A stretch of DNA of 14,302 nucleotides from a virus (Duplodnaviria; Heunggongvirae; Uroviricota; Caudoviricetes), in the IMG/VR virus record IMGVR_UViG_2778261167_000006, positions 1-14,302 of that record. One strand, given 5' to 3'. This document shows, one piece after another, positions 1 to 14,302 of this stretch. Every line of letters begins with the position of its first letter. The first letter of the stretch is position 1. The translations under genes and the position numbers were made by a program. The notes beneath the pieces are model-generated. The model searched no databases and was not told the origin of the DNA. It saw only the letters and a list, made by a program, of their open reading frames with translations.

Positions 1-1047
1 TTAACAAATGTTTTTTATTTCAGTTACAGTCTGATTAAATCTCTCTTCTTCCAGTTCCACGCCAATCGCACGGCGTCCCAGTGAAAGTGCCGCTTTTATT
101 GTTGAGCCAGACCCCATAAAAAAATCAGCAACCAAATCACCAGGGCGACTGCTGGCATCAATTATCTGCCGCAACATATCCGCCGGTTTTTCACAGGGAT
201 GTTTGCCCGGATAAAACTGCACGGGTTTATGCGTCCAGACATCCGTATAAGGAACAGCTGCTGATACGGAAAAATAACGCCGCAGGGATTTGTACTCTTC
301 CAGCAGGCTGGCATATTGCCGGTTCAGTTCACTGTATACGCTGACCAGCCGGTGGTGTGGCTTTTCCAGTTCCCCACGCTGATGTTTTTCTGCTGCAACA
401 CGCGCAAACAACGCCTGTAATTTCAGATAATCGCCTTCGTTCGGCAACTGCCACTGGCTGATACCAAACCAGTGCGAAGCCATGTTTTTCTTTCCGGTGG
501 CTTCCGCTATCTGTTTTGACGTTATTCCCAGTGATTCACGCGCATCACGAAAGTAAGAAATCAGCGGGGCCATGACGTGCTGTTTAAGGTCGCGCCCCTT
601 TGCCGCATAGCCGTCATTTTTGGGCTGGTATGGCCCCTGATAATGTTCTGCAAACAGAATGCGTTCTGTTGCCGGGAAATACGCCCGCAGGCTTTCCTTG
701 TTGCATCCGTTCCAGCGTCCGGACGGCTTCGCCCAGATAATGTGGTTCAGCACATTAAAGCGTTCACGCATCATGATTTCGGTGTCAGATGCCAGGCGAT
801 GACCACAGAACAGGTAGAGACTTCCGGCAGGTTTCAGTACCCGCCAGAATTGCGCCAGACACTGATCCAGCCATTTCAGGTAATCATCGTCGCCCTTCCA
901 CTGGTTATCCCAGCCCTCGGGCTTCACTTTAAAGTATGGCGGGTCTGTGACTATCAGATCGACAGAGTTTTCCGGTAAGGTCTGGATAAATTCCAGGCAA
1001 TCAGCGTTGATTAACTCGCAACTGGATATTTTTACAGTATTAGCCAT
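1..1047 (-). CDS. DNA methyltransferase, N6-adenine or N4-cytosine type (motif order suggests beta class)
   Basis: 348-aa ORF with DLIVTDPPYF (catalytic DPPY motif) near the N-terminus and FFMGSGST (FxGxG SAM-binding motif) near the C-terminus. Stop TAA at 1-3, start ATG at 1045-1047. Confidence 0.85.
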   Translation of the reverse strand: MANTVKISSCELINADCLEFIQTLPENSVDLIVTDPPYFKVKPEGWDNQWKGDDDYLKWLDQCLAQFWRVLKPAGSLYLFCGHRLASDTEIMMRERFNVLNHIIWAKPSGRWNGCNKESLRAYFPATERILFAEHYQGPYQPKNDGYAAKGRDLKQHVMAPLISYFRDARESLGITSKQIAEATGKKNMASHWFGISQWQLPNEGDYLKLQALFARVAAEKHQRGELEKPHHRLVSVYSELNRQYASLLEEYKSLRRYFSVSAAVPYTDVWTHKPVQFYPGKHPCEKPADMLRQIIDASSRPGDLVADFFMGSGSTIKAALSLGRRAIGVELEEERFNQTVTEIKNIC

Positions 1048-1182
1048 AGATCAATAAGCACTTCTCTGATAGGCTCATTCCGCTTTTGCGCAAAGCAGAT
1101 GGGCCTGAGGTTTGCTTGTGACCCCAACGCATGAGCAGATGGCTGGCAGGTGCCGCTAACACCCACCAGCCGCCCATTACCA

Positions 1183-1211
1183 CAAATAAAAAAGCCTTCA
1201 CTGAGGAAGGC
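1183..1211 (-). terminator. Rho-independent terminator for minus-strand transcription, overlapping the 3' end of the small wHTH gene
   Basis: Inverted repeat GCCTTC (1194-1199) / GAAGGC (1206-1211) with a 6-nt loop, followed on the minus strand by a U-run (plus-strand aaataaaaaa at 1184-1193). Confidence 0.55.
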
Positions 1212-1395
1212 GTCTGTAACAACCGAACTGATAATCAGCCAGACCCGCCATAACAAGCTGGGTCAGTATTAACTGGCAACGTTCGCGTGAAAGGTAAGTA
1301 TTCTGCGCAATTTCCCCGACGGTCGCCGGTTCGGTGACGCTTAATTCATTAAACACCACTCTGGCGGTTTCGGTCATATCCTGCTGTTTTAGCAT
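1198..1395 (-). CDS. Small (65 aa) putative winged-helix DNA-binding protein, function unknown
   Basis: Internal Met of ORF 1198..1566 preceded by AAGGGA about 8 nt upstream. The longer N-terminal extension would read through a terminator hairpin, so the short start is preferred. Sequence TVGEIAQNTYLSRERCQLILTQL resembles an HTH recognition segment. Confidence 0.5.
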   Translation of the reverse strand: MLKQQDMTETARVVFNELSVTEPATVGEIAQNTYLSRERCQLILTQLVMAGLADYQFGCYRRLPQ

Positions 1396-1517
1396 GTCTT
1401 TTTCCCTTTTCTCGTTAACGTGACATACCAATAACTCTTGTCGAAAAAGCCAGCAAGCTGAAAGCCTCGTATCCGCAACCACCAGCGCGTTTAACGTCCT
1501 GTGCCGCTTTTTGGGCG

Positions 1518-1541
1518 CAAAAAACCCGCTCAGTGGCGGGT
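1518..1541 (-). terminator. Rho-independent terminator (minus strand; possibly bidirectional)
   Basis: Plus strand caaaaaACCCGCtcagtgGCGGGTtt: 6-bp GC-rich stem, 6-nt loop, flanked by an A6 run (a U-run on the minus strand) and a short T-run on the plus side. Confidence 0.5.
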
Positions 1542-1657
1542 TTAAGCTGTGTGGCGAAGTTACCACTCTTCACCAAGTATTCGGTAATAAAATAACTTGT
1601 GGTGTTCTCGTTTTTATGCCGATAAAATAAACGGTCCACTTTCAAATGGAGCGATTC

Positions 1658-2578
1658 ATGATTTTTCTCAGAACTGAAAACGGCATCGAGAAACTTGAAA
1701 ACTGGGAGGAAATTATATCCAGACCAAACTTTGTCACCGCTATAGACAAAGGAGTTCAACAACTTGAGGAGATAATTGGTTACTACAAATTTAAAGAAGA
1801 AATCCACTGTGGTCTAACTGGTTGCAACCAACCACATCAAATGGGTTATATTGTAAAAACATCTAGTGGCATTGAAACCAACATCGGAAATAAATGTGGT
1901 AAAAACGAATTTGGTGTGGAATTTGGTGAAAACGTTCTTAGTTTCAATAAATTTATGCAACTCGAAACCAATCGGGAAATTATTAGTGCCGCAAAAAGTA
2001 AATGTGAAGCGTGGCAAAAAAATATTGAAACGATACGAAATATTAAACCCACAATAGATTATCTATCTTCTACCATCGAAAATAGTAAAAATTCCAATTA
2101 CGCCGGAAGACTTGGTGCTACAGAAATTCGTTTTTTGACCAAGAGCCAGACAGGCCTTGTAACCCTTTCTGAAGTGGAAACTGATAAGAATACCAAAACA
2201 ATTCTGTTCGCAATGAATGAACACATGCGCGAGTCTGGAGAAGCAATAAGTGAATTCTACATAGGAAAAGTATCATTTAGTCATGTTCTTTTACCAGAAA
2301 ACAATCTTCGTGATTTTTTTGTTGCGCTCAAAGAAGATCTAAAAAAAATTCAGTGTATTGATCTACAAACAGCCCCAAGCCCAGAAATTTCTAATGTTGC
2401 CAAAATTGCCAGTTCAATCGAAGAACGAATCAAACGATTAAAAAAACTGAAACATGAAGCCAGTAAATTCCTAACTAAAAAAAATCTGCATCCCATCGCA
2501 AACAAAATAAAATACTCATCGACAGCGGATGAACTTGAATTCCATAATTTCGAACGCTTTTTAAACGGGCTGAAATGA
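1658..2578 (+). CDS. Hypothetical protein (306 aa), AT-rich lone gene on the opposite strand to its neighbours; candidate accessory (moron) gene
   Basis: Long ORF with GGAG 6 nt upstream of ATG 1658 (the ORF track starts at ATG 1646). GC about 35% by hand count of sampled lines, against about 55-60% in the helicase region. Contains HCGLTGC...CGKNEF cysteines but no motif I can assign. Confidence 0.7.
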   Translation: MIFLRTENGIEKLENWEEIISRPNFVTAIDKGVQQLEEIIGYYKFKEEIHCGLTGCNQPHQMGYIVKTSSGIETNIGNKCGKNEFGVEFGENVLSFNKFMQLETNREIISAAKSKCEAWQKNIETIRNIKPTIDYLSSTIENSKNSNYAGRLGATEIRFLTKSQTGLVTLSEVETDKNTKTILFAMNEHMRESGEAISEFYIGKVSFSHVLLPENNLRDFFVALKEDLKKIQCIDLQTAPSPEISNVAKIASSIEERIKRLKKLKHEASKFLTKKNLHPIANKIKYSSTADELEFHNFERFLNGLK

Positions 2579-2581
2579 TAA

Positions 2582-2599
2582 AAGCCCCGAAAGGGGCTT
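2582..2599. terminator. Stem-loop between convergent genes (possible bidirectional terminator)
   Basis: AAGCCCCgaaaGGGGCTT, a 7-bp stem with a 4-nt loop, lying between the stop of the plus-strand gene (2578) and the stop of the minus-strand 276-aa gene (2693). Flanking U-runs are weak on both strands. Confidence 0.35.
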
Positions 2600-2692
2600 C
2601 TATCAAAATCATTTACGCATTATTCCGCATGCTCAAAAGAATACATGACAGATTCGGACAAAATCAAGTGCAATGTCGCAAAAAGCCTAAGT

Positions 2693-3523
2693 TTAGTTCA
2701 CATCATCACCAAAACTTGTCACATTCTGAAAAGCAATATCGGCCTTATGCTCTTCCTGGTGACAAATGTCAACCAGAGAATCAAGAAACGGCTTCCAATT
2801 ACGTGTCCATGTCCTGACATGTAGCTCGGGTATCCGCTTCAGTACAACTTTATATACTGTGGTAGACGGTATCGTGGAAAATCCATTTCCGCTACAACGT
2901 TCGCAGATTTTAAACACTGGCACACCACGCTCGCTTGTGGCTTTGCGGTCCAGTACCTCTCCCTTTCCACCACAACGACACCTGGCACTTATCACTCCCT
3001 TCCCTTTACATACATCGCAAACGACTGGTACAACTTCTGTTACCTCTGTCCATTTCTCCCAGTCTGACGGTCGAACAGCACGGGAGCGACTGGCCCAATA
3101 TGGTGCTTTACCCCATGGGTATGAAACCTTACGAATGACCTGCTTACGGGGTGTTAGTCCGGTACCACTGCAACTATGGCATGTTACGCTGGTGGCCGCC
3201 GATCGGGAATACTCAGCAAAAGCAAACTGCGCCAGTACCAGCATACACCAGCCAAATTCACCACCAGCTGCTTTACGCACATTCTTCGGTGCAATTTCCA
3301 TCGCGTGACGCGCCAGCGCCTGGACTGCCATCTGCTCATCAGTCTTGCTGATACCTGCCTTCCCGAAGAAGGCCACCAGACCAAACCGCTCACGATTGCT
3401 GGTGGTACCAATAGCCGCCATAACATCGGTGCCTGTAAGACGTTCCGGAGAGGTTCCTTTCACATCGTCGCCGATATACATTCCCTGAGGACTGAAGTAT
3501 TTTAGCGATGCCTCAAGCTTCAT
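2693..3523 (-). CDS. Zinc-finger protein with four CxxCxGxG repeats (DnaJ cysteine-rich-domain type); last gene of the replication operon
   Basis: 276-aa ORF with CHSCSGTG, CDVCKGKG, CRCGGKG and CERCSGNG. GGGGAG lies 8 nt upstream of the ATG; the ATG overlaps the upstream gene's stop (TAATG). Confidence 0.75.
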   Translation of the reverse strand: MKLEASLKYFSPQGMYIGDDVKGTSPERLTGTDVMAAIGTTSNRERFGLVAFFGKAGISKTDEQMAVQALARHAMEIAPKNVRKAAGGEFGWCMLVLAQFAFAEYSRSAATSVTCHSCSGTGLTPRKQVIRKVSYPWGKAPYWASRSRAVRPSDWEKWTEVTEVVPVVCDVCKGKGVISARCRCGGKGEVLDRKATSERGVPVFKICERCSGNGFSTIPSTTVYKVVLKRIPELHVRTWTRNWKPFLDSLVDICHQEEHKADIAFQNVTSFGDDVN

Positions 3524-4380
3524 TATTCACACTCCCCAACCAGATTGAGAATGACCGCTGCACCGTCGTCTTCCATGCATTCACCCTTACCACTTGCCAG
3601 AAACCAGCGGCACACCTCCACGGCTTCAGCGCGTGTCACCGGTTTGATAGTTGCCAGCAATTTTTCAAGGTAGCGCTCCCGGTCATATACTGATTCGTGA
3701 TGCTCAGAGTAACCAAACTCATCGCCCTGTTCTTTAGTTGCAGTGTGGCGAACACTGTAGAGCCAGTCCCAGTAAACGAACTCGCGAACAACATCAGACA
3801 GCGTATAAGGCTCAGGCAGCACATCGCGATATCCATCAACAAATGCCCGACGCTGTTCATCAATTTCGTTCATGCGGCTGCCGCCAATGCTTCCGGCTTT
3901 TTTCTCTGCCGCAGTCCAGCCCCAGAGATGATCGTTGATAAATTTCTTGGAAGACCTGATGACCCGCTCTGCTTCCACATCTTCGAGCGCTGCTTCATAG
4001 CTACCAAACGTAGCCCTGACTGATGCCGCTTTTTTGATGTTCTCCCGGGCGTTCCTGATAACCTGCGCAGGGTTATCCATGCCGATGATGCCGAACGCAA
4101 CCTGGAAAGGTTCGTAACCATTCGCCAGCAGATAACGCGAATAGCGTTCCTGAGCCTCTTTTGGGGAAATTTTAATTTTCACCAGCGCAGCCTCAGCAGC
4201 ATCCAGATGTGCGGGTTCGTTCAGACGGATAACCTCCAGCACCCAAAGATAAGCATCAGTCTGCTTATGCCCGGTGATTCTCCGTTGCTCTGGCAGGGGC
4301 TTGATGTTTGTGAGGGCGGAGCTGTACGCTGCCGTCGGGATGGTGAATAGTGCTTTATGTTCGTTATTATCAGTACGCAT
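3523..4380 (-). CDS. Hypothetical phage protein (285 aa), coupled between primase and the zinc-finger protein
   Basis: Long ORF with TAATG start/stop overlaps at both ends (4378-4382 and 3521-3525), placing it in the same operon. No recognisable motif. Confidence 0.65.
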   Translation of the reverse strand: MRTDNNEHKALFTIPTAAYSSALTNIKPLPEQRRITGHKQTDAYLWVLEVIRLNEPAHLDAAEAALVKIKISPKEAQERYSRYLLANGYEPFQVAFGIIGMDNPAQVIRNARENIKKAASVRATFGSYEAALEDVEAERVIRSSKKFINDHLWGWTAAEKKAGSIGGSRMNEIDEQRRAFVDGYRDVLPEPYTLSDVVREFVYWDWLYSVRHTATKEQGDEFGYSEHHESVYDRERYLEKLLATIKPVTRAEAVEVCRWFLASGKGECMEDDGAAVILNLVGECE

Positions 4381-5348
4381 TACGCAACCGCCTTTTTCTT
4401 ATGGAAAACCAGCTCTCGAACCTGATCACCGTTCATGAGCATATTGTTGAAATCATCGTGATCCGGCCAGTACACGCTCACGCGCTGCAGGTCATTCTTT
4501 GCCATCAGATTGGCATGAGCACATTCGCAAGCCGCAGCCAGCCCGGTGGCGCTGTTCTCGTCACGGTCGGCAAAAATAATCAGGTGCAGAACACCAGCTG
4601 GTACGCGGAACTTTTTCATAAAGCCGCTGTTAATGGTTGCCCAGGTGTTCACGTTATAAATCTGGTGCGCTGACAGCGCTGTTTCGATGCCTTCGGCGAT
4701 ACCCAGAGTGCTGGCGACAGGAAACATGCGGATAGCTACAGAACGAGCGTGATCCAAATAGTTATCTTCCTGCAGGGATTTGAGGCGCTTTGCACTGCTA
4801 CCGATATCTGCTTTTTTATCACCATCAAGCAGAGTCTGGTGCAGATAGCACAGCTCCCCTTTATCGTCCGTAGCAAGTGAATAAAGAGACTGGAACACAC
4901 TCCCGTTGTGTCTCTGCCTGGCATTGAACCGGATCGCCTCAGCAGGAAGACTGAATATTCCACGAGAATTAAGATACGCTGCGCCGGATGTACCACGCAG
5001 TGCCTCCAGTTTTGAAAACTTGCTCAATACCCGTTTGCGTAAGCTGGTGGCGCTGCTGGTTACCGGGATTTTAACCCGTTGGTAATCATTACCGATCAGG
5101 CGGTCTATTTCGGTACAAATCTCGTTAAATGGCTTCGCCTGTGTCAGGGTGACAAGTTTCATACCATCGCCACTACCACATACACAGATCCACGTTCCTG
5201 CACCGTCGCGGTCATCAATTCGGAACTTGCCACGTGCACCGCATACCGGGCATTCACCCTTGAAGTGATTTTTTCCGGTTATCGGCGGCAGACCGAAGTG
5301 CTCTAATATTTCAGGCCAGCGGCCTTTCGCTGCATCTGCTGTTTTCAT
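4380..5348 (-). CDS. DNA primase, TOPRIM type with N-terminal zinc-binding motif
   Basis: 322-aa ORF. N-terminal CPVCG...CVCG zinc-ribbon-like motif; IAEGIETALS (conserved TOPRIM Glu) and IIFADRDENSATGLAAA (DxD motif). Start lies 2 nt after the helicase stop. Confidence 0.85.
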   Translation of the reverse strand: MKTADAAKGRWPEILEHFGLPPITGKNHFKGECPVCGARGKFRIDDRDGAGTWICVCGSGDGMKLVTLTQAKPFNEICTEIDRLIGNDYQRVKIPVTSSATSLRKRVLSKFSKLEALRGTSGAAYLNSRGIFSLPAEAIRFNARQRHNGSVFQSLYSLATDDKGELCYLHQTLLDGDKKADIGSSAKRLKSLQEDNYLDHARSVAIRMFPVASTLGIAEGIETALSAHQIYNVNTWATINSGFMKKFRVPAGVLHLIIFADRDENSATGLAAACECAHANLMAKNDLQRVSVYWPDHDDFNNMLMNGDQVRELVFHKKKAVA

Positions 5349-5349
5349 C

Positions 5350-7008
5350 TTACTGACTCAGACTGTTTATATTTTTCTGGAGTTGGTGCTTTGCCTGCAT
5401 GATGCGCCAGGCCTCACTGCCTGCCGGCATCTCACGTCGTTCATCACGTTCCTGAGATAAATCAATCGTTGTTTGTGCGTTTTCAGTGACCTTCTGAACC
5501 CGCTGACGGCCTTTGGCAAACCGAATCAGCTTGTGTTTGATGTAGTTACTTACCTCTGGGCTTATTTCCATCGGGAAACTGCTCAACCCATCAGGCCATT
5601 CACCGAATTTCTCCCTGAAAGTGTGAGCACACCATCCATCACTGACTGGACGCCCCAGCGAAGCACGCTGGCGCTGATAAAATTTGATCTGACTCCACCA
5701 GGACTGTTTCTCTGCCTTCGTCGACTGATGCTGATTTTTACCCAGCTTATTAAGTTTGCGGCTAGTGTCAGTATCAACGTCTTCACCTCGCAGCGGCTTG
5801 TGTCCACATTTCGGGCAAACATAGACGCCAGCTGGCTTCATGTAGTGGCATTGAGGGCATTCATGTGGCAGTTTTTCGGCCCGTTCCTCAACTGCGCGGC
5901 GCGCGCTTTCCTCCATACCGTCAGACTTGCCGGGAAGATCGTCGTACTCGATTGAATCCGGATAACCCAGACGGTGCACGGTGCCGCTATGATCGAAGAT
6001 GAGGCAGGACTCTTTACCCGGTGCGGTGCGCAGCCCACGCCCGAGTGCCTGCAACCAGCGAATTTCGCTTTTTGTTGGCCTGGCGTAGATGATGCAACGA
6101 ACGTCACTATCGAAGCCGGCCACCAGCACGCCCACACTAACGATGATTTTCGTTGCACCAGTTTCAAAGCGGTGAATGATGGTCTGGCGCTCATCTACCG
6201 GAGTGTCTGCGGTCATTACCTCAGCGTTAACACCTGCGAGGTTAAACTGGATTGTCAGGTAATTGGCGTGGGCTACGTTGACGCAGAAAGCGATGGTAGG
6301 TAGATCCCGACCATTCTCCAGCCAGTTCTGTACAATGTCGCCCACCAGCGTAGATCCGCACATGATTTCAGCTAGCTGCGTTTCGTTGTAATCCCGGCCG
6401 TACTCAAGCGAAGATGTGGTTTTAACACCTTTCAGATCCGGCTTAGTTGGCGCGTAAAATTCGTATTTACTCAGATCGCCACGCTGGATTAACTCGCCGA
6501 TTGTGGTCGGCTTAATCAGTCGGTCATAGTATTTGCCCAGGAACGGGGAAAACGGAGTACCCGACAGGCCAATCACCTTTACGCCTTTGCCGCGCAGACG
6601 TTCGATATCCTTCAGGATGCGTTTTTTACGCAGGTGCGCTTCGTCGATAATCAGCAGATCGATATTTTCAGGAAAAACACGACGAATAAGCGTGTCAGCG
6701 CTGGCAATCTGAATTTTCCGGTCCGGATCGTAGTTCGGGTGATCCGCCCAGATATAACCGATTTCATCTCCAGGTAAACCATACTGCACGAACCGATTAG
6801 CCGTCTGACCAATCAGGATGGTGTACGGAACACAGAACAGGACGCGCATACCACGACTGACAAACCCGGCAACGATGAAGGCAGCCAAACCCGTTTTACC
6901 GCTACCGGTTGGCGAATACACCATGAAGGTGTCGTTTGCCTTCCAATCACGGCGCAACATGTTTAGCGCTCGTTCCTGTGCAAAATTCGGCGTGATCGTC
7001 AGCTCCAT
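5350..7008 (-). CDS. Superfamily-2 DEAD/DEAH-box helicase with C-terminal zinc ribbon (replicative helicase)
   Basis: 552-aa ORF. Walker A SPTGSGKT, motif II IDEAH, motif III-like SGTP, C-terminal CPQCH...CPKCG. GGGAG 7 nt upstream of the start. Confidence 0.9.
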   Translation of the reverse strand: MELTITPNFAQERALNMLRRDWKANDTFMVYSPTGSGKTGLAAFIVAGFVSRGMRVLFCVPYTILIGQTANRFVQYGLPGDEIGYIWADHPNYDPDRKIQIASADTLIRRVFPENIDLLIIDEAHLRKKRILKDIERLRGKGVKVIGLSGTPFSPFLGKYYDRLIKPTTIGELIQRGDLSKYEFYAPTKPDLKGVKTTSSLEYGRDYNETQLAEIMCGSTLVGDIVQNWLENGRDLPTIAFCVNVAHANYLTIQFNLAGVNAEVMTADTPVDERQTIIHRFETGATKIIVSVGVLVAGFDSDVRCIIYARPTKSEIRWLQALGRGLRTAPGKESCLIFDHSGTVHRLGYPDSIEYDDLPGKSDGMEESARRAVEERAEKLPHECPQCHYMKPAGVYVCPKCGHKPLRGEDVDTDTSRKLNKLGKNQHQSTKAEKQSWWSQIKFYQRQRASLGRPVSDGWCAHTFREKFGEWPDGLSSFPMEISPEVSNYIKHKLIRFAKGRQRVQKVTENAQTTIDLSQERDERREMPAGSEAWRIMQAKHQLQKNINSLSQ

Positions 7009-7270
7009 TGTGCTGCTCCCGTGCTGATGAGATAATAATTTCGTGATGTGGTTTTCATGGATTCCCCCTCACATGGCTGGTGGCCTCCCCAAAGGCTGCC
7101 AGCCCCCTTTCTGATTCAGCTCCTCTGAAAAATCACTCTTCCAAGAAGAACCCTTTTCGTTTCTCAAGGCCTGGGCGCTTTGTACTACCTTGCTGATACG
7201 AGCGTTTTTTTAAATTGCGCCCTTAAGACAGTGATCTACTTAACCAATGGATCTCTCCTGTTGGAAAAGA

Positions 7271-7324
7271 CCCTATTCCTGCCCCTACACCCAATCCCCC
7301 CCTACCCCCCTTTCCCTCTTCCCC
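7271..7324. repeat. Polypyrimidine, C-run-rich tract (G-run-rich on the minus strand) in a noncoding region
   Basis: Plus strand ccctattcctgcccctacacccaatccccccctacccccctttccctcttcccc; the minus strand carries consecutive G-runs. No ORF covers it. Confidence 0.6.
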
Positions 7325-7350
7325 ATAAAAACGTACTACTTACCTAGTAC
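7325..7350 (-). terminator. Weak terminator-like hairpin downstream of the cII-position gene
   Basis: Plus strand ataaaaac + GTACTA cttacc TAGTAC; on the minus strand this is a 6-bp AT-rich stem followed by GUUUUUAU. Confidence 0.3.
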
Positions 7351-7421
7351 ATATGAGGAATTGGGTCAGTTGGTTGCCAACCTGAACAGGCACCTTTAAG
7401 CCTGCTTCTGTTCGGGTGCCT

Positions 7422-7730
7422 TTAAACCCGAAACAATGAGGAGCGCGATAGCGATCCAGCCAGGGGCGGCTGAGTTGTATACCCCTGTAAAGCCCTGCCC
7501 TGATTTCTCACAAACAAGCGGAGCCTTGTGTTTGCTTCGTGCCTTGCTCTGTTCTCCTTGCGGAATGAAACAGGCTCAGCGTCAAAAGTGATTTCGTATA
7601 CCTCCGCATATTTCAGGGCGACCTTCCGTCTCAGTGACGGAGGCAGCCCCTGTAACTGCTGCTGAATCCACTCTTCGTCTGCCTGGCAGTACCTAGATGG
7701 CATCTCTGTCTGAACGTAATTCTGGGACAT
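7422..7730 (-). CDS. Hypothetical protein (102 aa) at the position lambda gives to cII; no similarity to lambda CII recognised
   Basis: ORF immediately downstream of the Cro-like gene on the same strand, overlapping it by 38 nt. Confidence 0.5.
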   Translation of the reverse strand: MSQNYVQTEMPSRYCQADEEWIQQQLQGLPPSLRRKVALKYAEVYEITFDAEPVSFRKENRARHEANTRLRLFVRNQGRALQGYTTQPPLAGSLSRSSLFRV

Positions 7731-7980
7731 ACAAGCCCTTCACCTCCGCCGTGCGCGCTAAGCTTGGATGTGGAAAAAGCTCTGGTAGGTCTGGACGAAA
7801 TTCATACGCTTGGATCTTTCCGTCGACAGCTGCAACCAATAACGGCACAAATTCTGGTGAAATCTTGTTCTTGCAGTTCAACCAATCGCAGACTGTTGAC
7901 TGGGCCTTTCCGCATCGCTTGGCTAAGGCTTGCTGACTTCCAAGAATCTCAATAGCTTTCTCTATGGCTTTATGTTTCAT
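7693..7980 (-). CDS. Cro-like HTH DNA-binding protein
   Basis: HTH segment GSQQALAKRCGKAQSTVCDWL. Start chosen at the Met preceded by AGGAGA 7 nt upstream (plus-strand tctcct at 7988-7993). Divergent from the CI-like gene. Confidence 0.75.
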   Translation of the reverse strand: MKHKAIEKAIEILGSQQALAKRCGKAQSTVCDWLNCKNKISPEFVPLLVAAVDGKIQAYEFRPDLPELFPHPSLARTAEVKGLYVPELRSDRDAI

Positions 7981-8002
7981 AATCGCATCTCCTATTGAGC
8001 GC

Positions 8003-8031
8003 ATAATAGCAACAGAAAAAGCGATATTCAA
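8003..8031 (-). promoter_or_regulatory. Putative sigma-70 promoter for the Cro-like gene (PR analog)
   Basis: Minus strand TTGAAT, 17-bp spacer, TATTAT (plus-strand attcaa at 8026-8031 and ataata at 8003-8008), about 15 nt upstream of the RBS. Confidence 0.5.
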
Positions 8032-8047
8032 CGTTAAACCTAGATCA

Positions 8048-8067
8048 TTTATCGGAAAGCCGATAAA
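8048..8067. promoter_or_regulatory. Perfect palindrome, candidate repressor/Cro operator
   Basis: TTTATCGG aaag CCGATAAA: perfect 8-bp inverted repeat with a 4-bp spacer, about 35-50 bp upstream of the CI-like start codon. Confidence 0.45.
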
Positions 8068-8099
8068 CTAACCAGGATAGAAAGGGGAGGAAAATCGCA

Positions 8100-8792
8100 A
8101 TGACATTTTCAGAACGACTTGATTTAGCTATGCGCAACGCAAAATTTACGCAAGGTAGGCTGGCCAAAGAAGTGGGTATGGCTCAGTCCAGTGTTAATCA
8201 ACTACTTAATAAAGCCAACGGTTCCAGAAAAACAGTCGAAATAGCAAAAGTTTTGGGCGTTAACCCGGAATGGCTCGCATCGGGTGTTGGCCCAATGGAA
8301 ATCGTGACCTCTGCAGACTCACACCAAATACGTAACATTTCTGAAGATTGGGTTACTGATTCGTATGTCGTGGATGTTTTAGACATCAGATATAGTTGCG
8401 GACCTGGTAGTTATAACTCTGATTTTCCTGACATTGTCAGATCTATAGCGATAGAACCAGGATACGCATCAAGAGTTTTTGGCGGCAGACCAGCATCAGC
8501 AATCAAAGCAATAAACGCCCACGGCGACAGTATGAAAGGCACAATAGACCCTGAAGACTTGGTATTTGTAGATGTATCAGTTCGCACATTTAATGGTGAT
8601 GGTATATACGCCTTTACATACTCTGGAACATCGCACATCAAAAGACTTCAAAAAATCAAAGATACTCTAACGGTGATATCTGACAACCCAGCTTACAAGG
8701 ATTGGGCTATCGAACCGGAAGACTTCGAACAACTTCACATTGACGGAAAAGTAATTGTCAGTTGGCCCATGACACTACACCGTTTTGCATAA
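8100..8792 (+). CDS. CI-like repressor: N-terminal XRE-type HTH plus C-terminal S24 (LexA-like) autopeptidase domain
   Basis: 230-aa ORF. HTH segment QGRLAKEVGMAQSSVNQL; C-terminal GDSM (Ser nucleophile) and downstream HIKRL (Lys). AGGGGAGG RBS before the ATG. Confidence 0.9.
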   Translation: MTFSERLDLAMRNAKFTQGRLAKEVGMAQSSVNQLLNKANGSRKTVEIAKVLGVNPEWLASGVGPMEIVTSADSHQIRNISEDWVTDSYVVDVLDIRYSCGPGSYNSDFPDIVRSIAIEPGYASRVFGGRPASAIKAINAHGDSMKGTIDPEDLVFVDVSVRTFNGDGIYAFTYSGTSHIKRLQKIKDTLTVISDNPAYKDWAIEPEDFEQLHIDGKVIVSWPMTLHRFA

Positions 8793-8810
8793 GCAAAAAT
8801 CATTTAACCC

Positions 8811-8837
8811 GCCCACTCTTAAGTGGGCTTTTTTTTT
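8811..8837 (+). terminator. Rho-independent terminator after the repressor gene
   Basis: GCCCACT ctta AGTGGGC (7-bp stem) followed by T9. Confidence 0.8.
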
Positions 8838-8859
8838 GGAAAAAAAATCGATAAACCGA

Positions 8860-8888
8860 TTGACAGGTAAAATCGGCGAACCTATTAT
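8860..8888 (+). promoter_or_regulatory. Near-consensus sigma-70 promoter (PL-like or lysogenic-conversion promoter)
   Basis: TTGACA (8860-8865), 17-bp spacer, TATTAT (8883-8888). Inverted repeat ACCTAT (8880-8885) / ATAGGT (8895-8900) overlaps the -10 and the predicted start site. Confidence 0.6.
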
Positions 8889-8937
8889 CATGACATAGGT
8901 ATCGAACTCACCAAAGCAATTATAGAGGATGAGAAAA

Positions 8938-9348
8938 ATGTCATCGTATATGGGGTTACCAACAAATCAGCACGATGCTCTTGAGAATATTCAGCTCTTA
9001 GTAGGGGCTGGTGCACTACTGTATAGCAGCAATAACCCTGAGTTAATTGAACTTGCCAGCTCCATCCTGGCTGTAACTCAAAAATATAGCCTCACCGCGT
9101 CACGTTTATGCAAACAAAATTTAGCTATTAATTCCCAGAATCGGATTCGCACCCAACGCGAAGCCTGCGGCTTAACAACCGCCGAACTCGCCAGGCTGCT
9201 CGATCTCGATGAAGAAATCATCATCCAGTGGGAGAGCGGAGAGTATGAACCAACTATCAGTATGCTTATCCCGCTGGCAAATGTTCTTGGTTGCGACCCG
9301 ATGTGGCTGTTAACCAGTAAACCAACAGCTGGGGATACTTGCGCATGA
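8938..9348 (+). CDS. Two-domain protein (136 aa): unknown N-terminal domain plus C-terminal XRE-family HTH
   Basis: AGAGGA 8 nt upstream of ATG 8938 (the ORF track starts at ATG 8929, which has no spacer). C-terminal HTH segment LTTAELARLLDLDEEIIIQWESGEYEPTISMLIPLANVLGCDPMWLL. Confidence 0.7.
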   Translation: MSSYMGLPTNQHDALENIQLLVGAGALLYSSNNPELIELASSILAVTQKYSLTASRLCKQNLAINSQNRIRTQREACGLTTAELARLLDLDEEIIIQWESGEYEPTISMLIPLANVLGCDPMWLLTSKPTAGDTCA

Positions 9349-9710
9349 AAAAGTTCGAAAACATAACTGTTCTCCATGTTGATGAATTTGATTATACAAA
9401 CCAGGAATTTCTCCCGGAGGTTATAAAAGCAATAGAAGTTGCCGATATAGTGTTTAGAGGAAAGAGAATTGTCAAAAACAGGCTCGCATGCACTTCAGGA
9501 GCAATGACAGAAACAACCTCACAACAAGATGATTATGAAGGCATTTGTCTGGAGCCTGATTCATTTGCGGTAAATGTTTATCATTTATTGCATGCAACAC
9601 AGGTATTACATATGTCCAGTAATCACGAGACAAAAACACTTGGCAGCGAAATTCTGAATTTTGCATGTGAATATGCAAAAGCTGCTGCCGAAAAAGAATT
9701 AGCACAATAA
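9345..9710 (+). CDS. Hypothetical protein (121 aa), translationally coupled to the upstream HTH gene
   Basis: ATG 9345-9347 overlaps the upstream stop TGA 9346-9348 (ATGA). AT-rich, about 33% GC in a sampled line. No recognisable motif. Confidence 0.65.
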   Translation: MKKFENITVLHVDEFDYTNQEFLPEVIKAIEVADIVFRGKRIVKNRLACTSGAMTETTSQQDDYEGICLEPDSFAVNVYHLLHATQVLHMSSNHETKTLGSEILNFACEYAKAAAEKELAQ

Positions 9711-9908
9711 CAACAAACATGCCCTGAACGTTTATTACGGTTTTATCGCCGGGGATTGTTACAACCTTTATTCATAGAGGGAAATCAGTTATGACTTTCC
9801 TGAAAAATAAGGCATCGTATAAAACTGCCTGCCTCATTGCACAACATGGAGATTCTTATCTTCATATAGCCAACCTGTATTTGCGCAAAGCATATGGGAG
9901 ATAAGTCA

Positions 9909-10097
9909 ATGGAAGAAAAACAACAAAACATAACACATAAAAAAGTAAGAGTGTTGCTAACCATTGAAAATGGTGAAGTAATTTACTCAAAACATCTGTT
10001 GGATAATGAATTCGTTGGCTGCATGGATACATTTCTGTGGATGGCAAAAAGAGCGGGTTACACGATTATTCCACCAGCAAAGGAGCAAACATTATGA
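9909..10097 (+). CDS. Hypothetical small protein (62 aa), first gene of a coupled pair
   Basis: GGGAG 8 nt upstream of ATG 9909; stop TGA 10095-10097 overlaps the next start ATG 10094-10096. AT-rich, about 27% GC in a sampled line. Confidence 0.5.
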   Translation: MEEKQQNITHKKVRVLLTIENGEVIYSKHLLDNEFVGCMDTFLWMAKRAGYTIIPPAKEQTL

Positions 10098-10675
10098 ATC
10101 ATTCAGAGTTCCGACCAGAAGTTACGCCACATGGCATAAAAATTGGCAATACAACCATTGATTATGTTGAGGCCGTACAGCGGCTTAATGATGGTGAATA
10201 CGATTATCCAAACTCACACGGTTTAAGAATCATGCAATGTATTGCTGAAGCCGATGATGCAGGGTTGCTGGGACGATTCTCAGTCGATATGAAGGTTGCT
10301 CAGTGGCGATGGCTGTATGTGACTACGTTTATAAATGAAGAGAAAGACAAGAACGGTACCGTTGATATCCCTAACGATAACGGAACTACAGATCACGCAG
10401 TTATTTACAAGGGTAAACATGGTTGCCTGAGTATCTACCCCGGACCACTTCGTATTGCCCTGCAAAACCACGTCGAATGGGGATTTATTGAAAAATATGG
10501 CGAAGCTGAAGGTATGGGGCGAGTTCTGTTTCTCTATCAAAAAATGCTCATCGCAGATCCTGATAATGGTTTCATTATTTCTGCTATGGGGCGCGAAGAG
10601 CTTGAACTCCTTCTGGATGAAATGATGAACGATCTGAATACTCATGGTATGCCAGAAGCGCCAGTGACACATTAA
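10094..10675 (+). CDS. Hypothetical protein (193 aa), second gene of a coupled pair
   Basis: AGGAG 8 nt upstream of ATG 10094; ATGA overlap with the upstream small ORF. The track ORF starting at 10037 lacks an RBS. Confidence 0.65.
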   Translation: MNHSEFRPEVTPHGIKIGNTTIDYVEAVQRLNDGEYDYPNSHGLRIMQCIAEADDAGLLGRFSVDMKVAQWRWLYVTTFINEEKDKNGTVDIPNDNGTTDHAVIYKGKHGCLSIYPGPLRIALQNHVEWGFIEKYGEAEGMGRVLFLYQKMLIADPDNGFIISAMGREELELLLDEMMNDLNTHGMPEAPVTH

Positions 10676-10720
10676 ATATTAAGAAGAATATAATTCTTCC
10701 ATCGTTTACTAACCGTTTAT

Positions 10721-10828
10721 ATGAAAAACAACCGTGAATTAAACAGAGTAAAACTGATTTTAATCCTTGCCACAGTACTGACACTAACTGAAATCATTAT
10801 TCTCTTTATTGCGCTGTCAGTCGGTTAA
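10721..10828 (+). CDS. Possible small hydrophobic peptide (35 aa, single predicted transmembrane segment)
   Basis: ATG...TAA ORF translating to MKNNRELNRVKLILILATVLTLTEIIILFIALSVG. No clear Shine-Dalgarno; below the size cut-off of the ORF track. Confidence 0.25.
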   Translation: MKNNRELNRVKLILILATVLTLTEIIILFIALSVG

Positions 10829-10851
10829 AAATATCGGGATACCACAGACCA

Positions 10852-11040
10852 ATGAGACTGTATTTCACAATAGTAATTTTACTGGCAATTATCGCATGCA
10901 TTTACGGATTACTCGTTCCGTTCCTTATATCCATGAAGGATACGATAGCCGTTACTTCTGGCTTTGCACTGGCGTTTCTGACCCCGCCCTGCATTTATGC
11001 CATTTACAAGGGTCTTTCTTTCACTAAGGATAAAAGATGA
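10852..11040 (+). CDS. Small membrane protein (62 aa, two predicted hydrophobic helices)
   Basis: Hydrophobic stretches IVILLAIIACIYGLLVPFLI and GFALAFLTPPCIYAIY. Stop TGA 11038-11040 overlaps the start of the SPFH gene (ATGA). Weak RBS. Confidence 0.5.
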   Translation: MRLYFTIVILLAIIACIYGLLVPFLISMKDTIAVTSGFALAFLTPPCIYAIYKGLSFTKDKR

Positions 11041-11864
11041 AAAAAATTATTTTTGCTTTAGCCATTGTTCTGCCGACTATTGGCCTTGTCGGTTGCGATC
11101 GCGTTGAACCAGGTAATGTTGGCATCAAGGTAAATAAACTGGGCGACGACAAAGGCGTCGGTGAGGTGGTCGGTGTTGGTCGCTACTGGACTGGCTGGAA
11201 TACTGAAGTTTACATCTTCCCCACCTTCAAGCAAATGAAGACCTACGATGAACCGTTCAGTTTCCAGATGAGTGACGGTACAACCATCGGCTATCACATT
11301 GGCGTGGCCTACAAAGTTGATCCATCCAAAGTTACCACGGTGTTTCAGACCTACCGCAAAGGCGTGGATGACATTACAGACACCGACCTGCGCCAGAAGA
11401 TCGCCGACGCACTCAACCGACTGGCCAGCAAAATGACCACCGACAAATTTATCGACGGCGGCAAGTCTGAGCTACTGGATGAAGCTCTTAAAGACATTCA
11501 GGCAGAGATGACACCCATCGGTATTCAGGTAATGAGCCTCTCATATGTGGGTAAGCCGGAGTACCCGCCTACTGTTATCGACAGCATTAATGCCAAAGTC
11601 ACGGCGAACCAGAAAACACTGCAGCGCGAGCAGGAAGTTAAACAGCGCGAAGCGGAAGCCAACATGTTGCGCGCGGAAGCTGCCGGACAGGCTGATGCTA
11701 TTCGCACAAAAGCCCAGGCTGAAGCCGACGCCATTCGTTTACGCGGTGAAGCTCTGCGCCAGAACCCCGGTGTTATGGAGCTGGAAGCCATCAATAAATG
11801 GAACGGCACACTGCCGCAATACATGACCAGCGGTGCTAATACACCATTTATCCAGGTTAAATAA
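11037..11864 (+). CDS. SPFH/band-7 (stomatin/prohibitin/HflKC-like) domain lipoprotein
   Basis: N-terminal lipoprotein signal MKKIIFALAIVLPTIGLVGC (lipobox LVGC). Central region typical of SPFH proteins; C-terminal Ala/Gln/Glu/Arg-rich coiled-coil-like segment. AAGGA 6 nt upstream of the ATG. Confidence 0.75.
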   Translation: MKKIIFALAIVLPTIGLVGCDRVEPGNVGIKVNKLGDDKGVGEVVGVGRYWTGWNTEVYIFPTFKQMKTYDEPFSFQMSDGTTIGYHIGVAYKVDPSKVTTVFQTYRKGVDDITDTDLRQKIADALNRLASKMTTDKFIDGGKSELLDEALKDIQAEMTPIGIQVMSLSYVGKPEYPPTVIDSINAKVTANQKTLQREQEVKQREAEANMLRAEAAGQADAIRTKAQAEADAIRLRGEALRQNPGVMELEAINKWNGTLPQYMTSGANTPFIQVK

Positions 11865-11871
11865 CTTATAT

Positions 11872-11890
11872 GCCCGGCAGGCCGCCGGGC
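11872..11890 (+). other. GC-rich stem-loop immediately after the SPFH gene (no U-tract)
   Basis: GCCCGGC aggcc GCCGGGC, a 7-bp stem, followed by taaggg rather than a T-run. Confidence 0.4.
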
Positions 11891-11904
11891 TAAGGGAAAT
11901 GCAG

Positions 11905-12264
11905 ATGAACACCCAGAATACTCAACCGCAAATAATGAACTATGACCCAAATCTGACGTCATGCGGACGCATGGCAAAACAAACCGTTCGATTAACTTTC
12001 GGACTATGGGAATACCGCGAAACATTCGAAGTCACTGTCGGCGGCAATCTGACCGGACTGGATGTTATCAGTTGCGCTATTGAAAGCCTGTACGCAACGC
12101 TGCCTTATGAAGAAGTCGAGGATGAGCGCGATATCATAGCCACCATTAATATCGGCGGACTGGAATGCAAGGATGAAAACCTGTCCGGAGAGCTCTGGCT
12201 TGCCGGGATGCTTATCTCAGCAGAAATCATCAGCATTGAACCCGCTACAAACATACGACTCTGA
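11905..12264 (+). CDS. Hypothetical protein (119 aa)
   Basis: AAGGGA 7 nt upstream of ATG 11905; the track ORF's earlier Mets lack RBS spacing. No recognisable motif. Confidence 0.55.
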   Translation: MNTQNTQPQIMNYDPNLTSCGRMAKQTVRLTFGLWEYRETFEVTVGGNLTGLDVISCAIESLYATLPYEEVEDERDIIATINIGGLECKDENLSGELWLAGMLISAEIISIEPATNIRL

Positions 12265-12295
12265 AGTTCTCACTATTCAGAGAGCAGGAGAAAAA

Positions 12296-12538
12296 ATGTT
12301 CGCTTTGATTAATCAGGGACAACTGTATACCGACAGTGCCGGTTACCCGGTAAGAATTATTCGCTGCATAAATAACACCGTGTTGTACAGAAGAATGGAT
12401 GGGCGAACACAGTCGGTAAAAATAAACGATTTTAATGAAACGTTTGAACGGCTCGATCATCAGGAATACCTACAAATTCTGGCAGAAACAGAGCAGGAAA
12501 CTCATCTGAAGAAATTACGAGCCATGCAAAGGAAGTAA
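12296..12538 (+). CDS. Hypothetical small protein (80 aa)
   Basis: AGGAG 5 nt upstream of ATG 12296, an internal Met of track ORF 12173..12538. Confidence 0.55.
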   Translation: MFALINQGQLYTDSAGYPVRIIRCINNTVLYRRMDGRTQSVKINDFNETFERLDHQEYLQILAETEQETHLKKLRAMQRK

Positions 12539-12541
12539 AAA

Positions 12542-12688
12542 ATGAATAAAGCGTTTGAGCTATGGGTACGCCAGCGTTACGGCAATCGCTATGACCTGAC
12601 GCGAGATGTTGACGGTTTCTACTGCCGTGAAATTGTAAAACGAATGTTTGAAGTGTGGTGCCACTGCCGTGGGCTGAGTGTTGTGTGA
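12542..12688 (+). CDS. Possible small protein (48 aa)
   Basis: ATG 12542 follows AGGAAG about 8 nt upstream and runs to TGA 12686-12688; translation MNKAFELWVRQRYGNRYDLTRDVDGFYCREIVKRMFEVWCHCRGLSVV. Below the ORF-track size cut-off. Confidence 0.35.
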   Translation: MNKAFELWVRQRYGNRYDLTRDVDGFYCREIVKRMFEVWCHCRGLSVV

Positions 12689-12696
12689 GGTAATGC

Positions 12697-12933
12697 ATGG
12701 GCAATGTGATTCAACTGGCTCCCAATGAATGGGTTTGTGAAAGCGTTCTTATCGCAATTACCGGGCTCAAACCAGGCACAATTCTCCGGGCCCGGAAAGA
12801 ATGCTGGATGGTAGGAAGAGAGTATATTCACGTATCGCCTGACGGTAATCCAAAACCTTCCAGCGAGTGTATGTATAACAGAAAAGCAATCGATGCCTGG
12901 GTCGCTTCAATGAAAAACAAACAACCTGGGTGA
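12697..12933 (+). CDS. xis: Excisionase-like small DNA-binding protein (recombination directionality factor)
   Basis: 78-aa ORF immediately upstream of the integrase on the same strand. WVCESVLIAITGLKPGTILRARKECWMVGREYIHV matches, from memory, the prophage excisionase-like family seen upstream of e14/Rac-type integrases. Confidence 0.7.
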   Translation: MGNVIQLAPNEWVCESVLIAITGLKPGTILRARKECWMVGREYIHVSPDGNPKPSSECMYNRKAIDAWVASMKNKQPG

Positions 12934-12988
12934 TTTAATACCATGAAATATGTAAGCTCGTATCGCTCTTGGGCGTCTGGAGGTATCG

Positions 12989-14302
12989 ATGGATAAAGTC
13001 AAATATCCAACAGGCGTCGAAAACCACGGTGGCACATTACGCATCTGGTTTAATTTTAAAGGTAAACGTGTCAGGGAAAATCTTGGTGTCCCTGACACTG
13101 CCAAGAACAGGAAGATCGCCGGAGAGCTGCGGACATCTGTATGTTTTGCCATTCGTACAGGAAACTTTGATTACGCTGCGCAGTTCCCTGACTCTCCTAA
13201 CCTCAAGGCTTTTGGAGTAAATAAAAAAGAAATTACGGTGAAAGAGCTTGAAGAAAAGTGGCTGGATCTGAAACGCATGGAAATCTCTGCAAATGCATTC
13301 AATCGCTATGAGTCCGTTGCAAGAACAATGATTCCGAAAATTGGAGGTAGCAGACTGGTGTCAACGGTGACCAAAGAGGAATTGCTGTATATCAGGAAAG
13401 ATTTGCTGACCGGATATCATAATTCAACGAAAGACAAAGCACCAGCAAGAGGACGGAGTGTCGTTACTGTAAATTATTATATGACGACAATCGCTGGAAT
13501 GTTTCAGTTTGCTGCAGATCACGGTTACTTAGAAGCAAATCCCTTCGAGGGAATTAAGCCTCTTAAAAGAGCCAGGGCAGAGCCAGATCCGCTAACTCGT
13601 GACGAATTTATTCGCCTGATAGATGCTTGCCGGCATCAGCAGACAAAAAACCTGTGGTCATTGGCTGTGTACACAGGAATGCGTCATGGTGAACTGGTCT
13701 CCCTGGCCTGGGAAGATATCGATCTGAAAGCAGGAACAATTACTATCAGGCGCAATTATACGAAACTCGGTGAGTTCACTCTACCTAAAACTGAAGCAAG
13801 TACAAACAGGGTTGTGCATCTTATCCAGCCCGCTATCAGTGTCCTGAAAAATCAGGCTGAAATGACAAGACTGGGTAAGCAGCACCACATCAAGGTTCAA
13901 CTACGTGAATATGGACGTTCAGTGAATCATGAATGTACTTTCGTATTTAACCCCCAGGTGGTTAGAAAAAGCAAACAGGTAGGTTTTATCTACAAGGTAG
14001 ATTCCATTGGCGACTCATGGGAAACAGCCATTAAGCGTGCAGGCATCAGGCATCGAAAGGCATACCAGTCACGACACACTTATGCGTGCTGGTCATTATC
14101 TGCCGGAGCAAATCCAAGCTTCATTGCCAGCCAGATGGGCCATGCAAGTGCCCAGATGGTGTTCAATGTATACGGAGCCTGGATGACTGACAGCAATGCA
14201 GAACAGATCGCAATGCTGAATCAGAAGCTGGCAGATTATGTCCCAATGATGTCCCATGGTCACCAAAGTGACACAAGAGACTTATTAAAATCAGTAGGTT
14301 AG
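12989..14302 (+). CDS. int: Tyrosine recombinase / phage integrase
   Basis: 437-aa ORF with an N-terminal arm-binding-type region (YPTGVE...GTLRIWFNFKGKRVRE) and a C-terminal catalytic region with conserved Arg (MRHGELV), His/Arg (SRHTYA) and a Tyr near the C-terminus (VYGAWM). GGAGG 5 nt upstream of the ATG. Confidence 0.9.
   Translation: MDKVKYPTGVENHGGTLRIWFNFKGKRVRENLGVPDTAKNRKIAGELRTSVCFAIRTGNFDYAAQFPDSPNLKAFGVNKKEITVKELEEKWLDLKRMEISANAFNRYESVARTMIPKIGGSRLVSTVTKEELLYIRKDLLTGYHNSTKDKAPARGRSVVTVNYYMTTIAGMFQFAADHGYLEANPFEGIKPLKRARAEPDPLTRDEFIRLIDACRHQQTKNLWSLAVYTGMRHGELVSLAWEDIDLKAGTITIRRNYTKLGEFTLPKTEASTNRVVHLIQPAISVLKNQAEMTRLGKQHHIKVQLREYGRSVNHECTFVFNPQVVRKSKQVGFIYKVDSIGDSWETAIKRAGIRHRKAYQSRHTYACWSLSAGANPSFIASQMGHASAQMVFNVYGAWMTDSNAEQIAMLNQKLADYVPMMSHGHQSDTRDLLKSVG

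Follow-up and report, generated by a model that had tools for sequence, protein, structure and literature searches.

An optional cargo gene antisense to the late-operon leader of a lambda-like prophage, with a predicted role against other phages

Why should a single AT-rich gene lie backwards in a block of phage genes which otherwise all point the same way, and what could its product do for its carrier? This question is raised by a stretch of 14,302 nucleotides of a tailed virus (Caudoviricetes), positions 1 to 14,302 of the IMG/VR record IMGVR_UViG_2778261167_000006, which is called the window in the following and which is the int-to-Q half of a lambda-like prophage of the Shiga toxin (Stx) phage type. 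The gene encodes a protein of 306 amino acids and lies directly after, and convergent with, the gene of the late antiterminator Q. We suggest that it is an optional cargo gene which is expressed in the lysogen and whose product is predicted to act against other phages; to this reading as a whole we would give a probability of about 0.5. The anatomy of the locus and the cargo status of the gene we consider highly probable, and for the predicted anti-phage function of the protein the odds are close to even or slightly worse.

The gene and the signals directly in front of it are the following:
1658..2578, plus strand: open reading frame (ORF) of 306 amino acids, ATG at 1658 and TGA at 2576–2578; product identical to WP_096925676.1; family PHROG 7003
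1648..1651, plus strand: Shine-Dalgarno sequence GGAG, 6 nt before the ATG at 1658, invariant in the alignment of the upstream blocks (alignment A6)
1600..1628, plus strand: putative sigma-70 promoter of the gene itself, −35 TGGTGT at 1600–1605, 17-nt spacer, −10 TAAAAT at 1623–1628

The ORF had been marked with these boundaries in an earlier, sequence-only reading of the window, and they were confirmed. The homologues begin at the same MIF… and the GGAG is a plausible ribosome-binding site; an alternative in-frame ATG at 1646 would give a protein of 310 amino acids. The GC content of the ORF is 35.4% (29.3% at third codon positions, GC3) and that of the adjoining genes 50–52%, so that the earlier estimate of about 35% for the gene stands, whereas the 55–60% given for its neighbours was too high. 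When GC is computed in sliding windows the ORF is the most AT-rich 921-nt stretch of the whole window, and only 0.5% of the sliding windows are as low. It is also the only plus-strand gene in the block from the cI-like gene (8100–8792) to the methylase gene; the earlier reading had stated this for the part from the replication operon to the methylase. Within the subfamily of 306 amino acids the ratio of nonsynonymous to synonymous substitution rates (dN/dS) is ∼0.10, with dS saturated. The ORF is a real gene under purifying selection.

The gene is far from being a constant part of its phages. It is matched in 27 of 5426 complete Escherichia coli genomes, in full length in 16, against 2202 of these genomes that have its left flank, and a paralogue of 25% identity occupies the same slot in 22 E. 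coli genomes. When 80 IMG/VR contigs were retrieved via the Q protein (73–99% identical to the Q of the window), a family member convergent with Q was found in 21 of them and none in the other 59. Elsewhere the slot after Q contains unrelated cargo: a DDE transposase of an insertion sequence, a PipA-family effector, a DUF6367 protein, several uncharacterised proteins, a pair with weak similarity to PD-T4-10 (E 3e-10 and 3.5e-5), a CPBP/Abi-type intramembrane protease in an O157 prophage, a GIY-YIG nuclease in phiP27, and two convergent hypothetical genes in Stx2a_WGPS2. The cargo is mixed, with defence-like units (the PD-T4-10-like pair and the CPBP/Abi protease) next to PipA, insertion sequences and uncharacterised proteins. 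From the unrelated cargo and the patchy presence we conclude that the slot is a variable hotspot and the gene accessory. This comparison of syntenic prophages also answers the question whether the gene might simply be a regular component of such elements: neither a universal presence with matching composition nor homology to a core phage function was found.

Measured against the definition of a moron (sensu Hendrix and colleagues), the gene shows the patchy presence at the same junction and the deviant composition. As to the promoter and terminator that a moron should bring along, ∼60 bp upstream of the ATG, including the TAAAAT, are co-inherited with the gene across loci with unrelated left flanks (alignment A6), and a hairpin, common to the Q/pR′ module, lies 4 nt past the stop codon; consensus scans called neither signal. 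The cassette proper extends from ∼1590 to 2580. Thus, of the earlier proposal of a cargo gene with its own transcription unit, the accessory cargo holds and the promoter-like upstream block may provide expression signals of its own, and the hairpins as its own brackets do not hold.

Some further observations concern single loci. The PD-T4-10-like cargo is a two-gene unit with DUF6575 (locus L165, 4161–5890), the PipA/GtgA-type effector gene is oriented like the 306-aa ORF (L118, 3966–4646), and the CPBP/Abi-type protease gene lies at 4058–4876 of L022. The copy of the gene in phi467 (L001, 5140–6014) is split into two coding sequences, the copy of E. coli M8 (L004, 6268–7005) is annotated with a shortened start, and in strain 2012EL-2448 (L008, ∼4001–4189) only the last ∼70 nt of the ORF and the hairpin are left.

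The position of the gene becomes clearer from the DNA on both sides of it, for which the following features are relevant:
2693..3523, minus strand: gene of the late-gene antiterminator Q, 276 amino acids, PF03589 with E 6e-52, 41.7% identity to lambda Q, convergent with the ORF
2616..2667, minus strand: putative late promoter pR′ and sigma-dependent pause element, −35 TTGATT at 2667–2662, 18-nt spacer, −10 TATTCT at 2643–2638
2624–2616, minus strand: pause part of the pR′ block, −10-like repeat AATAAT at 2624–2619 and GCG at 2618–2616, then an AT-rich tract
2582..2599, both strands: GC-rich hairpin, putative tR′, AAGCCCC-GAAA-GGGGCTT, followed on the minus-strand side by TTTTATCATTT; 4 nt past the stop codon of the ORF
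1519..1543 (stem 1522–1543), minus strand: left terminator-like hairpin with a run of six U; start of the conserved downstream late module
1198..1395, minus strand: gene of a small phrog_331 protein (annotated 'TrmB family'), winged helix-turn-helix-like; first gene of the downstream late-leader module
1..1047, minus strand: N6/N4 DNA methyltransferase (methylase) gene of the late-leader module; in relatives tRNAs, stx or lysis genes follow

The right neighbour of the gene had been taken for a replication gene and is actually the Q antiterminator. Likewise, what had been called a replication operon is the early-right operon ending in Q together with the late-operon leader. Both of the flanking hairpins seen before are present. 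The right one is strong (z −5.7 and −6.1 on the two strands; none of 200 shuffles folds as well), while the energy of the left one is unexceptional (z −1.6; 14 of 200 shuffles are as good). A simple terminator scan found no site between 1200 and 3000, with 2.0 expected, probably because its maximal stems absorb the U-run. On the minus strand each of the two hairpins has a T/U-run (AAACCCGCCACTGAGCGGGTTTTTTGCG and AGCCCCTTTCGGGGCTTTTATCATTTC). By their sequence the hairpins would stop minus-strand, that is late, transcription and would not primarily bracket the plus-strand gene.

To whom the hairpins belong can be judged from their conservation. When eight loci are aligned between the stop codon of Q and the end of the next gene, the 3′ end of Q and this next gene are seen to be strongly diverged, but one non-coding block hardly varies. 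On the minus strand the consensus of this block reads CTTGAyTTTG, an 18-nt spacer, TATnnT, ATGCGGAATAATGC(G/C), an AT-rich tract, and the hairpin with its U-run; the −10-like repeat is followed by GCG or GCC among the aligned loci. In pR′ of phage 82 a −10-like element, a GCC at +15–17 and an AT-rich stretch precede the pause (PMC5001585). From this layout we infer a lambdoid late promoter, a sigma-dependent pause element and an early terminator. Block and right hairpin are kept in all eight loci, including those with the 25%-identical allele (611R1), the 316-aa allele (FAM21845) and the deletion remnant (2012EL-2448). As the block persists beside divergent alleles and even beside a remnant, we read the hairpin at 2582–2599 as the tR′ of the Q module; incidentally it serves the 3′ end of the ORF too and could end the plus-strand transcript. 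The left hairpin in turn belongs to the downstream late module and not to the cassette. This module consists of the hairpin, the phrog_331 gene and the methylase gene, followed by tRNAs, stx or lysis genes; it is found in 2202 of the 5426 complete E. coli genomes, with matches that end at window position ∼1529–1584. Some other carriers have a different, weaker terminator-like hairpin at the position of the left hairpin and phage 611R1 has none. Hairpins owned by the cassette as insulators are ruled out by these conservation patterns, as the right one goes with Q/pR′ and the left one with the late module. Since both U-tracts are on the minus strand and both hairpins are part of neighbouring late modules, the gene is an antisense insert inside the late-operon leader.

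The same stretch of the minus strand (2575–2667) with its pR′-like promoter, pause element and immediate terminator is predicted to give a constitutive RNA of ∼50–60 nt in the lysogen, for which there is no match to an Rfam family. It resembles in this respect lambda 6S RNA and StxS, the RNA from pR′–tR′ of Stx phages (PMC7547250), as the block 2667–2582 has the promoter, the −10-like pause element and the terminator directly after it; the likeness concerns, however, the DNA beside the ORF, and start site and RNA are predictions here. In the Rfam search nothing reached the gathering thresholds, and weak matches to isrK, Trp-leader and Thr-leader overlap the two terminators and are probably terminator-driven noise. 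The match to isrK, a small RNA of Gifsy-1, covers the full model length at 1519–1585 on the minus strand (17.7 bits with a gathering threshold of 50, E 0.47); it ends at the left terminator and its position is the exact junction of cargo and late module.

The protein itself matches PHROG 7003 over its full length (E 2.7e-111; residues 1–306 on profile positions 1–309 of 309). In a profile search 1002 cluster representatives at 50% identity were found, nearly all of ∼300 amino acids. The homologues, all annotated as hypothetical, come from E. coli, Salmonella, Enterobacter, Citrobacter, Serratia, Yersinia, Providencia, Pectobacterium and Gilliamella, and the family is also present in Methylotenera and in Pseudomonas and Burkholderia phages (a contig scan with a closer family alignment gave 4 loci only). 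Given that the family occurs in Pectobacterium, Gilliamella, Methylotenera and in Pseudomonas and Burkholderia phages, a function between phage and bacterium fits better than a role in animal virulence.

Across 41 diverse members the residues Y43, C51, C56, H60, G63, G77, C80, G81 and N276 are invariant. Among these is the short cysteine cluster which had been noticed before, and C51, C56, H60 and C80 form the pattern C-x4-C-x3-H…C, that is, four conserved ligands in a compact module as expected for a zinc finger. Hence we infer that zinc or another metal is bound at these four residues. The alignment of the 41 members has no acid/base catalytic signature, and as these nine positions are the sole invariant ones, they argue for a structural metal site rather than for an enzyme. 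There is also no P-loop, in agreement with the earlier statement that a Walker A motif is absent. The protein has 35 kDa and is soluble, without signal peptide or transmembrane segment (maximum KD19 0.73). The AlphaFold model (mean predicted local distance difference test score, pLDDT, 92.6) shows a beta domain of residues 1–85 and a helical bundle with two helices of ∼30–40 residues; the N-terminal domain modelled alone reaches a pLDDT of 93.3. Searches with Pfam, NCBIfam and PADLOC returned nothing useful for the protein or for the 41 relatives, and the PDB sequences gave no match with phmmer or with a profile search. In none of the profile and structure searches was a core phage function matched.

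How old is the association with Q? Among 80 viral loci which were retrieved via the family itself, 51 have a PF03589-type Q that ends 121–192 bp from the gene. These pairs include cases in which both proteins have diverged (family ∼40%, Q ∼41–45% identical), and very different alleles (25–29% identity) stand beside Q proteins of 74–88% identity. The convergent arrangement is found in E. coli, Salmonella and phage records with different replication modules. Other members lie between antiterminators of the DUF1133/antitermQ type and holins, and a third group adjoins S24 cI-like repressors in a rexAB-like position (Klebsiella, Pseudomonas temperate phages, viral contigs). A Burkholderia phage copy adjoins a RelE toxin–antitoxin pair. 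The repressor-adjacent and satellite accessory positions are typical of lysogen-expressed genes. The low GC content had been taken as the mark of horizontal acquisition. In 18 of 18 loci, however, the family gene has a GC content 4–19 points lower than that of its locus, so that a low GC content is a lasting trait of the family and no evidence of a recent arrival. The gene looks from these comparisons like an old resident of the slot with polymorphism in presence and in allele.

Two side observations belong here. A distant member (∼21% identity) lies at the end of a small element in the Logan contig SRR18669188 (L018, 250–6853), whose other genes encode an archaeo-eukaryotic (AEP-type) primase, a small terminase and a major capsid protein; the element resembles a capsid-forming phage satellite whose accessory region contains the family gene. 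In addition, the Q proteins of the window and of phage vB_EcoS-611R1 (L002, 6085–6270) are identical to about residue 212 and then diverge, and the DNA identity of 99% between both stops at window position ∼2880, so that the junction lies inside Q (window 2693–2880). From this junction it would appear that recombination exchanges the C-terminus of Q together with the late promoter region and the cargo allele after it, as a single unit. The generalisation by which every family member would lie antisense to a lytic promoter was dropped, as the pL position is not established for the repressor-adjacent copies.

For an anti-phage function there is a computational hint. The protein WP_032207072.1 of 306 amino acids is encoded beside Q in E. 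coli 90-3040 by a gene that is 84% identical in DNA to that of the window. It is listed as 'Predicted novel defense gene' by DefensePredictor, with a mean log-odds of 7.87 at a cut-off of 4 (Table S10; DeWeirdt, Mahoney and Laub 2026, PMC13092281), in the 'uncharacterized' cluster WP_001549653.1, and without HHblits or Foldseek link to known defence proteins (PMC13092281). The cluster assignment is a computational label only. We take the listing as moderate and partly circular support for defence. Among the units that were cloned and tested in that study (118, Table S6; PMC13092281) the cluster WP_001549653.1 was not found, and no accession among them that could be mapped is a family member. 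The protein 'VAME' (WP_087897390.1, 307 amino acids), which was tested and found non-protective (PMC13092281), belongs to another cluster and may or may not be a family member.

Several points weigh against an anti-phage function and against expression in the lysogen. PADLOC-DB v2.0.0 gave no family at E≤1 for the protein of the window; with PADLOC v2 the 41 members yielded four isolated matches (E 0.0015–0.0075) which we treat as noise. Fold searches with the whole model and with the N-terminal domain, including Foldseek against BFVD, found no informative neighbour and thus no mechanistic handle. Only ∼45% of the cloned DefensePredictor predictions were protective, and GC content and neighbouring genes are among the features of this classifier (PMC13092281), so that its score is not independent of the low GC and the neighbourhood described here. 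The consensus promoter scan called neither the promoter at 1600–1628 nor pR′, and both promoter calls are weak. The slot accepts cargo that is not defensive, namely PipA in the slot and Stx further downstream. Split, truncated and deleted copies, with truncated proteins also occurring in the cluster of the protein, indicate that the gene is dispensable and often lost. Finally, the long co-residence with Q could point to a function related to Q instead.

The kind of gene is not new. Morons between Q and the lysis genes of lambdoid phages include the porin gene lc of PA-2 (nmpC in DLP12), lambda bor, stx of the Stx phages and GtgA/PipA of the Gifsy type; of these, nmpC/lc and bor likewise run against late transcription and are active in lysogens. 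The gene of the window is like them an optional gene after Q with a deviant composition and putative expression signals of its own, whose slot contains unrelated cargo in relatives. In contrast, there is no relation in sequence or fold, and its product is of a soluble cytoplasmic type and not a porin, lipoprotein, toxin or secreted effector. What is known already is thus this moron kind of the lambdoid Q-to-lysis region and the family as such, which is catalogued as PHROG 7003 and was computationally flagged as a defence candidate.

As a lone accessory prophage gene it may also be compared to prophage defence genes such as BstA, a single-gene system with self-immunity, and lambda RexAB and P22 Sie of the immunity region, the more so as some family members are found at the repressor-adjacent position. 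As with these, the prediction is an action on behalf of the lysogen against other phages; a way of sparing the carrier, here by antisense late transcription, is plausible. The protein is not homologous to them (PADLOC was negative). For BstA (Owen et al. 2021, PMC8585504) the self-immunity lies in a DNA element within the gene, whereas here we would propose convergent transcription. The gene was also considered as Tai, the tail-assembly interference gene, and rejected, since no family member is present in phi80 and the place of Tai is in front of the packaging module.

How could such a gene work? In the lysogen it would be transcribed from its own weak sigma-70 promoter with the TAAAAT, and the protein would guard the lysogen from other phages by superinfection exclusion or abortive infection. 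It would probably act stoichiometrically and without enzymatic activity, by binding or sensing a phage component or nucleic acid, with a zinc-stabilised recognition domain on a helical scaffold. Upon induction, RNA polymerase modified by Q would start from pR′, pass tR′, cross the gene in antisense and pass the second terminator. This antisense read-through might shut the gene off while the late module is expressed, and so spare the late development of the prophage itself. Invading phages would meet the pre-made protein, and late transcription of the carrier would silence the gene, which would amount to self-immunity by genome architecture. In this complete form, a new single-protein anti-phage system with a novel zinc-binding beta domain and a helical bundle, no enzymatic site and self-immunity by the antisense position after pR′/tR′, the proposal is speculative and taken as a whole rather unlikely.

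Other explanations have to be weighed against a cargo gene with anti-phage function. The one that survives best, though we think it unlikely as well, is a lysogenic-conversion gene unrelated to defence that alters the physiology or fitness of the host (stress, colonisation, virulence), as other morons between Q and lysis do. The PipA/GtgA-type effector in the same slot of some relatives and stx downstream in phi467, phiP27 and WGPS2 fit to this, as does the lack of a match to a known defence model. However, the protein has no signal peptide, transmembrane segment or effector-like domain, a machine-learning classifier scores a homologue as defensive, and a host-specific virulence role is hard to reconcile with a family whose hosts include environmental, plant-associated and insect-gut bacteria and which is found in Pseudomonas and Burkholderia phages too.

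Still somewhat less likely appears a phage-intrinsic regulator tied to Q and late transcription, for example, a zinc-finger protein which binds nucleic acid or RNA polymerase and damps a leaky pR′/Q or sets the time of lysis. This is suggested by the fact that a convergent linkage with antiterminators of two families has persisted through deep divergence, by the mosaic junction at about residue 212 of Q, with the C-terminus of Q, pR′/tR′ and the family allele travelling together, and by the small metal-binding domain with its long helices. Against this, 59 of the 80 contigs with a closely related Q have no family member, so Q works without one, and alleles of only 25–29% identity stand beside Q proteins of 74–88% identity. 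Moreover, members near cI-like repressors and in the satellite-like element have no Q nearby, and a physical linkage is to be expected for any insert just after tR′.

Clearly improbable is a counter-defence (anti-immunity) or host-takeover gene serving the phage's own infection. Accessory, fast-diverging, low-GC and uncharacterised phage genes are often anti-defence genes, and in a Serratia locus an accessory neighbour has an Acb2/Tad1-type domain. On the contrary, the gene opposes the early-right and the late transcripts and has its own promoter-like element, and this orientation lets us expect poor expression in lytic growth; the architecture of 306 amino acids is kept across ∼1000 clusters, whereas most known anti-defence proteins are smaller. 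A non-functional chance ORF in an AT-rich spacer, for which one could cite that AT-rich DNA is poor in stop-free frames only by chance and that some copies are split or truncated, is already refuted by the conservation data, namely the dN/dS of ∼0.1, the PHROG match (E 2.7e-111), the 1002 clusters and the confident fold.

What makes the gene noteworthy is the size of the family together with its structural novelty, its constant placement backwards right after the late antiterminator, and the idea of self-immunity by placement. Should the product be anti-phage, it would be a widespread, structurally new single-gene system of ∼1000 clusters in Enterobacterales, in Pseudomonas and Burkholderia phages and in satellite-like elements, and the slot after Q in lambda-like and Stx-type prophages would be a hotspot of cargo and defence alongside those of P2 and P4. 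As the phi467 copy is situated within the leader of the transcript controlling Shiga toxin, between Q and stxA, toxin and lysis expression could also be affected by convergent transcription or by a second terminator borne by such cargo. For the annotation of such prophages the corrected anatomy of Q, pR′, tR′, antisense cargo, second terminator and late module is useful even with an ordinary function of the gene.

The remainder of the window is in keeping with its assignment to a lambda-like prophage. The plus strand encodes the integrase (12989–14302), an early-left block including an SPFH/Band 7 protein, and the S24/helix-turn-helix (HTH) cI-like repressor (8100–8792); the minus strand encodes a cro-like protein, a superfamily 2 helicase (5350–7008), a primase (4380–5348), a phrog_6204 protein, Q, the phrog_331 protein and the methylase. 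The closest phage records are Stx-type lambdoid phages, among them phi467 with the same gene between Q and stxA. In phiP27 and in Stx2a phages the module of phrog_331 and methylase genes precedes tRNAs and stx. A second stretch of low GC content (36–44%) is found at 7950–10950, around and to the right of the cI-like gene, with an HTH protein (8929–9348) and ORFs without Pfam match at 9339–9710 and 10037–10675; these are possibly further accessory genes of the immunity and early-left region. The SPFH/Band 7 protein (E 3e-31; 11037–11864, plus strand) is encoded in the early-left operon and is followed by DUF5406 and DUF4222 proteins, an unusual cargo at this place.

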